Positions 35,736-39,133 of a stretch of 43,931 nucleotides of DNA are shown here, one piece after another; position 1 is the stretch's first letter, and each line of letters starts with the position of its first letter. Position numbers and translations under genes: made by a program. This DNA is from a virus (taxonomy: Duplodnaviria > Heunggongvirae > Uroviricota > Caudoviricetes), in IMG/VR virus record IMGVR_UViG_2541047897_000005; one strand, 5' to 3'. The notes beneath the pieces were generated by a model that was not told where the DNA came from, made no database searches, and saw only the letters and a list, made by a program, of their open reading frames with translations.

Positions 35736-38057
35736 ATGGGTAAAGGCAGCAGTAAGGGGCATACCCCGCGCGAAGCGAAGGACAACCTGAAATCATCCCA
35801 GATGCTGAGCGTGATAGACGCCATCAGTGAAGGGCCGATTGAAGGTCCGGTGGACGGATTAAAAAGTGTGCTGCTGAACAGTACGCCGGTGCTGGACAGT
35901 GAGGGGAATACCAATATCTCCGGTGTCACGGTGGTGTTCCGGGCAGGTGAGCAGGAGCAGACACCGCCGGAGGGATTTGAATCCTCCGGCTCCGAGACGG
36001 TGCTGGGTACGGAAGTGAAGTACGACACGCCGATTACCCGGACCATCACGTCTGCAAACATCGACCGTCTGCGCTTTACCTTCGGTGTGCAGGCACTGGT
36101 GGAAACCACCTCAAAGGGGGACCGGAATCCGTCGGAAGTCCGCCTGCTGGTTCAGATACAGCGTAACGGTGGCTGGGTGACGGAAAAAGACATCACCATT
36201 AAAGGCAAAACCACCTCGCAGTATCTGGCCTCGGTGGTGGTGGATAACCTGCCGCCGCGCCCGTTTAATATCCGGATGCGCAGGATGACGCCGGACAGCA
36301 CCACAGACCAGCTGCAGAACAAAACGCTCTGGTCGTCATACACCGAAATCATCGATGTGAAACAGTGCTACCCGAACACGGCACTGGTCAGCGTACAGGT
36401 GGACTCGGAGCAGTTCGGCAGCCAGCAGGTGAGTCGTAATTATCATCTTCGCGGGCGCATTCTGCAGGTGCCGTCGAACTATAACCCGCAGACGCGACAA
36501 TACAGCGGTATCTGGGACGGAACGTTTAAGCCAGCATACAGCAACAACATGGCCTGGTGTCTGTGGGATATGCTGACCCATCCGCGCTACGGCATGGGGA
36601 AGCGTCTCGGTGCGGCGGATGTGGACAAATGGGCGCTGTATGTCATCGGCCAGAATTGCGACCAGTCGGTGCCGGATGGCTTTGGTGGCACGGAGCCGCG
36701 CATCACCTGTAATGCCTGGCTGACCACACAGCGCAAGGCGTGGGATGTGCTCAGTGATTTCTGCTCGGCGATGCGCTGTATGCCGGTATGGAACGGGCAG
36801 ACGCTGACGTTCGTGCAGGACCGACCATCAGATAAGGTGTGGACCTATAACCGCAGTAATGTGGTGATGCCGGATGATGGCGCGCCGTTCCGCTACAGCT
36901 TCAGCGCCCTGAAGGACCGCCATAATGCCGTTGAGGTGAACTGGATTGACCCGAACAACGGCTGGGAGACGGCGACAGAGCTTGTTGAAGATACGCAGGC
37001 CATTGCCCGTTACGGTCGTAACGTCACGAAGATGGATGCCTTTGGCTGTACCAGCCGGGGGCAGGCGCACCGCGCCGGGCTGTGGCTGATTAAAACGGAA
37101 CTGCTGGAAACGCAGACCGTGGACTTCAGCGTGGGTGCGGAAGGGCTTCGCCATGTACCGGGGGATGTCATTGAAATCTGTGATGATGACTATGCGGGTA
37201 TCAGCATCGGCGGGCGCGTGCTGGCGGTGAACAGCCAGACCCGGACGCTGACGCTCGACCGTGAAATCACGCTGCCATCCTCCGGTACCACGCTGATAAG
37301 TCTGGTTGACGGAAGTGGCAATCCGGTCAGCGTGGAGGTTCAGTCCGTCACCGACGGCGTGAAGGTAAAAGTGAGCCGTGTTCCTGACGGTGTTGCTGAA
37401 TACAGCGTATGGGGGCTGAAGCTGCCGACGCTGCGCCAGCGCCTGTTCCGCTGCGTGAGTATCCGTGAGAACGACGACGGCACGTATGCCATCACCGCCG
37501 TGCAGCATGTGCCGGAAAAAGAGGCCATCGTGGATAACGGGGCGCACTTTGACGGCGACCAGAGCGGCACGGTGAATGGTGTCACGCCGCCTGCGGTGCA
37601 GCACCTGACTGCCGAAGTCACCTCAGACAGCGGGGAGTATCAGGTGCTGGCGCGCTGGGATACGCCGAAGGTGGTGAAGGGGGTGAGCTTTATGCTTCGC
37701 CTGACCGTGGCAGCGGATGACGGCAGTGAGCGGCTGGTCAGCACGGCCAGGACGACGGAAACCACATACCGCTTCAGGCAACTGGCGCTGGGGCGTTACA
37801 CGCTGACGGTCCGGGCGGTAAATGCGTGGGGACAGCAGGGCGATCCGGCATCGGTATCGTTCCGGATTGCCGCACCGGCAGCGCCGTCGCGGATTGAGCT
37901 GACGCCGGGCTATTTTCAGATAACTGCCACGCCGCATCTTGCGGTTTATGATCCGACGGTACAGTTTGAGTTCTGGTTCTCGGAAAAGCGGATTACCGAT
38001 ATCAGGCAGGTTGAGACCACAGCCCGCTATCTTGGTACGGCGCTGTACACTGGATAG
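35736..38057 (+). CDS. J: Tail tip/central fibre protein J, N-terminal 773-aa portion, ending at a frameshift
   Basis: Matches recalled lambda gpJ up to ...RYLGTALY, then premature TAG; the J reading frame continues in another frame. Confidence 0.85.
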
Positions 38058-39133
38058 CTGCCAGTATCAATATCAAACCGGGCCATGATTATTACTTTTA
38101 TATCCGCAGTGTGAACACCGTTGGCAAATCGGCATTCGTGGAGGCTGTTGGTCAGCCGAGCGATGATGCGGAAGGTTACCTGGATTTTTTCAAAGGCCAG
38201 ATAACCGAATCCCATCTCGGCAAGGAGCTGCTGGAAAAAGTCGAGCTGACGGAGGATAACGCCAGCAAACTGGAGGAGTTTTCGAAAGAGTGGAAGGACG
38301 CCAACGATAAATGGAATGCCATGTGGGGCGTCAAAATTGAGCAGACCGAAGACGGCAGGCATTATGTCGCGGGGCTTGGCCTTAGTATGGAGGATACGGA
38401 GGAAGGCAAACTGAGCCAGTTCCTGGTTGCCGCTAACCGTATCGCGTTTATTGACCCGGCAAACGGGAATGAAACGCCGATGTTTGTGGCGCAGGGCAAC
38501 CAGATATTCATGAACGAAGTGTTCCTGAAGTATCTGACGGCTCCCACCATTACCAGTGGCGGCAATCCTCCGGTATTTTCCCTGACACCGGACGGGCGGC
38601 TGACGGCGAAAAATGCCGATATCAGCGGTAACGTGAATGCGAACTCCGGGACGCTCAATAATGTCACGATTAACGAGAACTGTCGGGTTCTGGGAAAACT
38701 GTCCGCGAACCAGATTGAAGGCGATCTCGTTAAAACAGTGGGCAAAGCTTTCCCCCGGGACTCCCGTGCACCGGAGCGGTGGCCATCAGGGACTATTACC
38801 GTCAGGGTTTATGACGATCAGTCGTTTGACCGGCAAATTGTTATTCCAGCGGTGGCTTTCTGCGGTGCCAGACATGAGCGGGAGAATAGCGATACTTATT
38901 CGTCATGCCGCCTGATAGTGAAGAAAAACGGGGCTGAAATTTATAACCGAACGGCTCTGGATAATACTCTGATTTACACGGGTGTTATTGATATGCCTGC
39001 AGGCAGTGGTGTAATGACACTGGAGTTTTCTGTATCAGCATGGTGGGTAAATGGTTGGTATCCCACAGCAAGTATCAGCGATTTGCTGGTTGTTGTGATG
39101 AAGAAAGCCACTGCAGGCATCAGTATCAGCTGA
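38051..39133 (+). pseudogene. J: J C-terminal (receptor-binding) portion, out of frame with the upstream J segment
   Basis: Frame open from 38015; from TGG 38051 it encodes [29 protein letters not shown]..., continuing lambda J; track ORF starts at GTG 38111; extreme C-terminus differs from lambda J. Confidence 0.7.

Follow-up and report, generated by a model that had tools for sequence, protein, structure and literature searches.

A two-base duplication splits the tail-tip gene J of a lambda-type prophage and very probably makes it an inherited pseudogene in a sub-lineage of Escherichia coli

The stretch of DNA analyzed here, the 43,931 nucleotides of the virus record IMGVR_UViG_2541047897_000005 (hereafter the window), contains a lambda-type prophage of Escherichia coli in which the tail-tip gene J is not present as one uninterrupted open reading frame (ORF) of about 1130 codons, but as an ORF of 773 codons followed by 360 codons in a displaced frame (Table 1). 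The first of these parts is closed by the stop codon TAG at 38055-38057, and the J sequence resumes in the other frame from the TGG at 38051; both points had been made in an earlier note based on the letters of the window alone, and are upheld by the ORF list and the translation. The resumed frame remains open through the natural J stop at 39131-39133. The same note had suspected two extra nucleotides near 38049-38050 by comparison with lambda, and the LGTALYWIAAS that it gave for lambda indeed corresponds to lambda gpJ (PDB: 8iyk, chain J) at residues about 766-776. Nucleotide alignment with the intact J genes of E. coli MS20658, E. coli UTI89, and phage PhiR47_1 revealed exactly two extra bases in the window, which convert TGTACTGG to TGTACACTGG. 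This alignment, a check of the kind that the note had proposed, and a base-by-base comparison with the MS20658 copy (L009) place an AC duplication at 38047-38050. The inserted dinucleotide has no unique placement, in that it can be read as AC at 38047-48, AC at 38049-50, or CA at 38048-49, and every one of these placements amounts to a tandem duplication of AC. The resulting allele reads TACACTGG where the intact J has TACTGG, and the frame shifts after Tyr771, as TAC TGG becomes TAC ACT GG, with the stop following two codons on. The truncated product accordingly comprises 771 native residues followed by Thr-Gly, and these 771 residues together with the 360 displaced codons add up to 1131 aa, matching the length of the intact allele. 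Thus, relative to the closest intact allele J has gained 2 bp, a number not divisible by three, and a premature stop, which is the signature of a frameshift pseudogene.

The J protein with the frame repaired matches lambda gpJ, which is represented by PDB entries 8iyk and 8xcg-8xck, over its whole length (PDB 8iyk chain J, residues 1-1130 against 1-1131; 2298 bits, E = 0, phmmer against PDB) and shows the same Pfam architecture, namely FNIII-A_GpJ, Phage-tail_3, Ig_J, Ig_J_second, Phage_Tail_Tip, and Ig_GpJ_C, with all of these domains far over their cut-offs. In both elements J lies between I and lom. The window version differs from lambda gpJ in the interruption after codon 771 by the 2-bp duplication, and in the extreme C-terminal receptor-binding region, where the two proteins diverge from about residue 975, suggesting that receptor specificity may differ as well. 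The Ig_J_second domain is the FNIII-2 domain of lambda gpJ, and the alpha-helical shaft, the central straight fibre, and the receptor-binding domain are all located C-terminal to it (PMC11101478, PMC10721106). The break point falls at position 56 of the 105 positions of the Ig_J_second profile, i.e. in the middle of FNIII-2. The 5' part of J accounts for the hub domains together with FNIII-A and FNIII-1 and reaches halfway into FNIII-2, whose other half is encoded in the 3' part along with the alpha-helical shaft, the central fibre (Phage_Tail_Tip), and the receptor-binding domain (Ig_GpJ_C).

A megablast search of 5,426 complete E. coli genomes with the right-hand part of the window (positions 19500-43931, a query of 24,432 bp) recovered a prophage of approximately 100% identity in the strains Z0117EC0117, MS20658, UPEC132, GN02350, N50, and YP3, with each of these matches spanning 24,430 bp. 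Over its entire length, the window aligns in blastn with the MS20658 copy in 43,931 columns with 5 mismatches and a single 2-bp gap (99.98% identity), and the J gene of this strain is a single ORF of 3396 bp that encodes 1131 aa and is annotated as gpJ. That only five substitutions and the 2-bp gap separate the two copies indicates that the frameshift is a very recent event in an element that has otherwise stayed the same, and the comparison may be taken to establish this recency. Four of the five substitutions are non-synonymous. The gene for the S24/CI-like repressor (6783-7538, minus strand) holds two of the five, E173D and the synonymous change; chance or a small recombination patch could account for this local excess. 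UTI89 was rejected as a general reference: its J 3' region is identical bar the indel, but the remainder of its prophage belongs to another phage, inserted elsewhere in the genome (the yjjG side, with an HK97-like head), and MS20658 and Z0117EC0117 were used in its place. Among the 5,426 complete genomes, all 29 records that reach an identity of 99% or more have the version that is shorter by 2 bp, i.e. the intact one, and the intact protein of the same J allele is encoded on 878 contigs. Z0117EC0117 belongs to sequence type (ST) 12 (PMC11494206) and UPEC132 to phylogroup B2 (PMC11203468), which suggests that the host background is extraintestinal pathogenic E. coli of the B2/ST12 group, with the ST being known from the intact-J relatives rather than from the carriers of the interrupted allele.

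The interrupted allele itself recurs across assemblies. In the assembly collection, 22 contigs encode precisely this 773-aa product, and an exact-sequence look-up placed the 773-aa piece on 16 contigs and the 340-aa piece, which begins at the first in-frame GTG of the displaced part, on 19. The two pieces are also represented in GenBank by EQX77707.1 and EQX77708.1 of E. coli UMEA 3193-1, of which the latter (340 aa) was deposited as a separate "hypothetical protein". Six carrier loci were fetched as assembled sequences (L002-L007, from SRR14154159, GCA_964052855.1, ERR4034446, ERR2238587, GCA_013351595.1, and SRR22500082); ACAC is present in all six and the intact version in none. Among the sources of the carriers are a draft from Broad dating to 2013, an assembly of 5.2 Mb in a single contig, and several SRA/ENA runs assembled in Logan. 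At least four distinct carrier genotypes can be recognized: a single-nucleotide polymorphism (SNP) at 32485 is common to carriers L003 and L004, another at 32699 is found in L007, and the repeat region of the side-tail-fibre gene stf is 42 bp (14 codons) shorter in L004, giving a protein of 785 aa. Carrier L003 (GCA_964052855.1) additionally has an element of the IS66 family of insertion sequences (IS) in the major tail gene V (window 29231-29240; L003 881-3466), with three ORFs (HTH_Tnp_1, TnpB_IS66, and DDE_Tnp_IS66), so that this prophage lineage has acquired a further lesion independent of the one in J. The nested SNPs, the IS insertion, and the stf repeat variant show the carriers to be more than duplicates of a single assembly. 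This nested variation is consistent with what would be predicted for vertical inheritance within a clade, and the recovery of the same insertion in six loci from different samples that have since diverged further supports both the mutation and its heritability, as far as assembled sequences can establish them.

A sequencing or assembly artefact, whereby the two extra bases would be absent from the real genome, would be in line with the insertion occurring in none of the 5,426 complete RefSeq genomes of E. coli and with a 43-mer across it having no exact match in the GTDB species representatives, IMG/VR, or the JGI metagenome contigs, scans which were run without a positive control and carry little weight. 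However, rather than being confined to one assembly or to an error-prone context, the identical insertion is shared by multiple assemblies from different submitters, years, and presumably platforms, and its carriers differ from each other by SNPs, the IS insertion, and repeat length, with shared derived SNPs in a nested pattern. Moreover, the insertion context CTGTACACTGGATAG contains no homopolymer and no GATC (Dam) or CCWGG (Dcm) methylation motif, and the insertion is missing from the 878 contigs that share its flanking sequence. We hence regard an artefact as extremely improbable; the assembly error that the earlier note had offered as one option is largely refuted by the identical ACAC in many independent, since-diverged assemblies, and appears to be excluded for practical purposes. 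Judged by these comparisons, the ACAC mutation is rare, lineage-restricted, and real. Programmed or leaky recoding near 38049-38054, which would restore a full-length gpJ with one substituted or inserted residue, would require a -1 (equivalent to +2) shift, and such a shift anywhere from 38015, where the downstream frame has its last stop, to 38054 would join both J parts. As only three gpJ copies are needed per virion, even low efficiency could in principle suffice, and the same operon contains a real -1 site, the heptamer G_GGA_AAG at 30360-30366 in G/T, which is in frame with G (29962-30384), the T frame opening at 30366. Like the programmed -1 frameshift of lambda G/GT, the J break lies in this operon and has two overlapping frames, but the resemblance is only superficial, with the heptamer, the structure, and the conservation all being absent from the J break. 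None of the 14 heptamers in the 38016-38057 overlap is a zero-frame slippery X_XXY_YYZ, and no A or T run that would permit transcriptional slippage is present at the site. The 101 nt from 38040 have a minimum free energy of -18.2 kcal/mol as against a mean of -22.7 kcal/mol for dinucleotide shuffles (z = +1.34; fold prediction without pseudoknots), i.e. the RNA past the break folds less stably than the shuffled controls and offers no downstream stimulatory structure. Conservation of the two-frame arrangement was not found, J being a single ORF in all near-identical complete genomes and all isolated lambdoid phages examined, and uninterrupted in otherwise identical prophages. Since the flanking sequence is identical in hundreds of uninterrupted copies, no recoding signal could have been selected. 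The absence of recoding signals may thus be considered established at the level of sequence, and recoding, already ranked as far less likely in the earlier note, is exceedingly unlikely.

A functional J in two pieces, in which the 773-aa hub and a separately translated C-terminal fibre and receptor-binding piece would assemble non-covalently, has certain precedents. Phage T5 divides these roles among three proteins, with pb3 as the hub, pb4 as the fibre, and pb5 as the receptor-binding protein; the hub of lambda gpJ and everything up to FNIII-2 is the counterpart of pb3, and the C-terminal remainder that of separate T5 proteins (PMC10721106). Furthermore, a recombinant gpJ fragment from residue 713 forms a stable trimer that binds LamB (PDB: 8xcj, 9wca; PMC11101478). 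By such analogies, a split at a domain border would not be absurd. The break in the window, however, lies inside FNIII-2 rather than at a domain boundary, and the GTG at 38111 (about residue 792) is preceded by no Shine-Dalgarno sequence, its anti-Shine-Dalgarno duplex energy being +1.9 kcal/mol as against -3.3 to -10.8 kcal/mol in 14 of 15 genuine late-operon starts. The next in-frame starts, at 38138, 38321, and 38387, have energies of -1.7 to -5.0, which are no better than the background (-3.1 ± 2.6), most real starts of late genes lying at -4 to -11. A piece initiated at GTG 38111 would also miss the FNIII-2 strands that the N-terminal piece lacks, and the lesion is an accident of 2 bp that left the allele otherwise as it was and brought no compensating changes with it. 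The 360 displaced codons are most likely untranslated because there is no ribosome-binding site, and a working two-piece J is scarcely credible.

In light of the above, we consider it very probable that a genuine, vertically inherited frameshift has pseudogenized J of this lambda-type prophage in a B2 (ST12-related) sub-lineage of E. coli, in agreement with the defective host-recognition protein that the earlier note had listed among its options and that the sequence evidence favours. Under this scenario, a tandem duplication of the dinucleotide AC of the replication-slippage type would have shifted the frame after Tyr771. The truncated gpJ would retain the hub domains that nucleate the tail tip and, ending in the middle of FNIII-2, would be left without the receptor-binding domain, without the central straight fibre, and without the alpha-helical shaft, which clamps the FNIII cone shut. 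In lambda, tail assembly starts with J, which also determines LamB binding, and therefore no infectious particles would be expected. The alpha-helical shaft anchors the three FNIII-2 units and thereby holds the tube closed (PMC11101478). By analogy with the structure and genetics of lambda gpJ, adsorption and infectivity would probably be lost, and the prophage would be unable to make infectious particles alone unless a co-resident prophage supplies J. Because the genes for lysis and the cargo are spared, the lesion probably makes no difference to the host, and the prophage may persist as a carrier of host-beneficial cargo such as iss, an ompC-like porin, and the adjacent sitABCD.

Certain observations weigh against this reading or soften its consequences. 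Some of the carrier contigs may be re-sequenced close isolates, so that independent strains would be fewer than contigs; a tail might still form from the N-terminal 771 residues; and a second lambdoid prophage of the same cell could supply an intact J that complements or repairs the break, J-like sequences being found at a median of 2 places per genome in the 5,426 complete genomes. A conditionally rescuable phage, arising either through an unprogrammed low-level -1 slip at ACU-GGA-UAG or through hub-only tail-like particles that are completed or retargeted by a co-resident J or fibre, is very unlikely.

Beyond J, the prophage looks like a complete lambdoid element, with its components assigned from the ORF lists, the Pfam labels in identical contigs, and the PGAP annotation of the near-identical MS20658 copy. 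The early and lysis side comprises, after int, xis, exo/bet/gam, the S24 repressor, replication genes, Q, and the lysis genes, and is followed by a lambda-type late operon with the genes Nu1, A, W, B, C, D, E, FI, FII, Z, U, V, G/T, H, M, L, K, I, J, and lom, and then by the side-fibre module. All late genes except J are full-length ORFs within the window, where the break in J hence stands as the only obvious lesion of the structural operon, just as the earlier note had proposed; its description of the prophage as otherwise intact holds for ORF integrity, the only sense in which it is supported. The stf ORF (39859-42264) is continuous, with 801 codons from a GTG or 799 from an ATG, and the identical sequence in MS20658 is labelled as "incomplete" fragments by PGAP. 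It includes repeats at about 40340-40890, namely a 189-nt tandem pair and repeats of 21/27 nt. In the MS20658 relative a truncated tfa remnant is found just past the right end of the window, and in the related complete genomes icd flanks the element on one side and a 3' remnant of icd on the other, sitABCD being located immediately inside the right end. In MS20658 (L009 45862-48501; L010 462-4991) the icd 3' remnant, on the attR side, is located beyond sitA, which implies that sitDCBA, an iron/manganese transporter operon, is inside the icd-bounded element, between the tfa remnant and attR. No att repeats of at least 10 nt were found linking the int-side junction to the junction between the tfa remnant and sitD.

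Table 1. Positions of the parts of J, the domains of its product, substitutions, and other prophage features (nucleotide positions in the window unless given as residues)
Feature	Position	Strand	Product, gene or effect	Basis or remark
5' part of J	35736-38057	+	truncated gpJ, 773 codons	ORF list and translation
Frameshift duplication ACAC	38047-38050	+	AC to ACAC, 2 bp	alignment with intact J genes
Displaced 3' part of J	38051-39133	+	-1/+2 frame, 360 codons plus stop	translation
340-aa ORF within displaced J part	38111-39133	+	first in-frame GTG	ORF list
FNIII-A_GpJ	residues 86-207		truncated gpJ	Pfam
Phage-tail_3	residues 330-497		truncated gpJ	Pfam
Ig_J	residues 610-714		truncated gpJ	Pfam
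Ig_J_second, partial	residues 716-770		truncated gpJ	Pfam, profile positions 2-56 of 105 only
Ig_J_second, complete	residues 716-818		intact protein	Pfam
Phage_Tail_Tip	residues 845-972		intact protein	Pfam
Ig_GpJ_C	residues 1001-1131		intact protein	Pfam
Substitution vs MS20658	3019		hypothetical ORF, A24T	
Substitution vs MS20658	7020		repressor, E173D	
Substitution vs MS20658	7047		repressor, synonymous	
Substitution vs MS20658	30290		G, M110T	
Substitution vs MS20658	32740		H, A650S	
Lambdoid prophage, int to side-tail-fibre module	1-43931			collinear with intact-J copy in E. coli MS20658
int	1-1143	-	early end of prophage	
emrE (cargo)	about 10497-10829	+		annotation of MS20658 copy
ybcK-type recombinase (cargo)	11085-12611	+		annotation of MS20658 copy
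Alpha/beta hydrolase (cargo)	12961-14004	-		annotation of MS20658 copy
ompC-like porin (cargo)	16514-17596	-		annotation of near-identical MS20658 copy
iss (cargo)	19480-19773	-	bor-like serum-survival lipoprotein	annotation of MS20658 copy

Split J products are common in sequence collections: a 315-aa C-terminal J fragment (P0018) is found on 120 contigs, and one protein cluster alone has thousands of "partial" J members. A 340-aa C-terminal J piece with 3 substitutions (P0030) comes from an NCTC-type assembly of 5.28 Mb (VED14538.1). Another J fragment of 773 aa (P0036) belongs to a 94%-identical allele and ends in ...YLGTGSQWTV within two codons of the same position; its C-terminus is native to a different allele and does not end in Thr-Gly-stop, and the equal length is provisionally treated as a coincidence, although P0036 and P0030 may also reflect the same site or a recombination junction. 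GenBank has listed the products of the split J described here from the UMEA 3193-1 draft onward, and the "phage tail component" (773 aa) and the "hypothetical protein" (340 aa) should be united in the annotation of a single J pseudogene. The lesion may further serve as a clean, datable marker for a B2/ST12-related sub-lineage of E. coli. It also provides an example of the first step in prophage domestication, in that a single lesion in an otherwise unaltered prophage of 44 kb would stop the horizontal spread of the element and its cargo (iss, the porin, and sitABCD) and keep that cargo in place. It adds nothing new on recoding or tail biology, and its value lies mainly in annotation and as a lineage marker.

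On the whole, the split J is a case of ordinary prophage decay, a recent and lineage-specific pseudogenization of a kind already known. A frameshift in stf was reportedly described in 1992 by Hendrix and Duda, who compared the laboratory strain lambda PaPa with Ur-lambda. A structure of Ur-lambda is given in PMC12617516. The two cases are alike in that a small indel in a tail-fibre gene splits the ORF and removes a function in host adsorption. They differ in that lambda stays viable without its side fibres, which are accessory, whereas neither tail assembly nor receptor binding of the LamB type can do without J; therefore, unlike the stf lesion, the lesion in the window should abolish infectivity. 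The decaying or cryptic lambdoid prophages DLP12, Rac, Qin, and e14 similarly combine point lesions in morphogenesis genes with the retention of cargo. In contrast to these, the prophage in the window appears to be at the very start of decay, being, with the exception of J, the same ORF for ORF as its uninterrupted copy.

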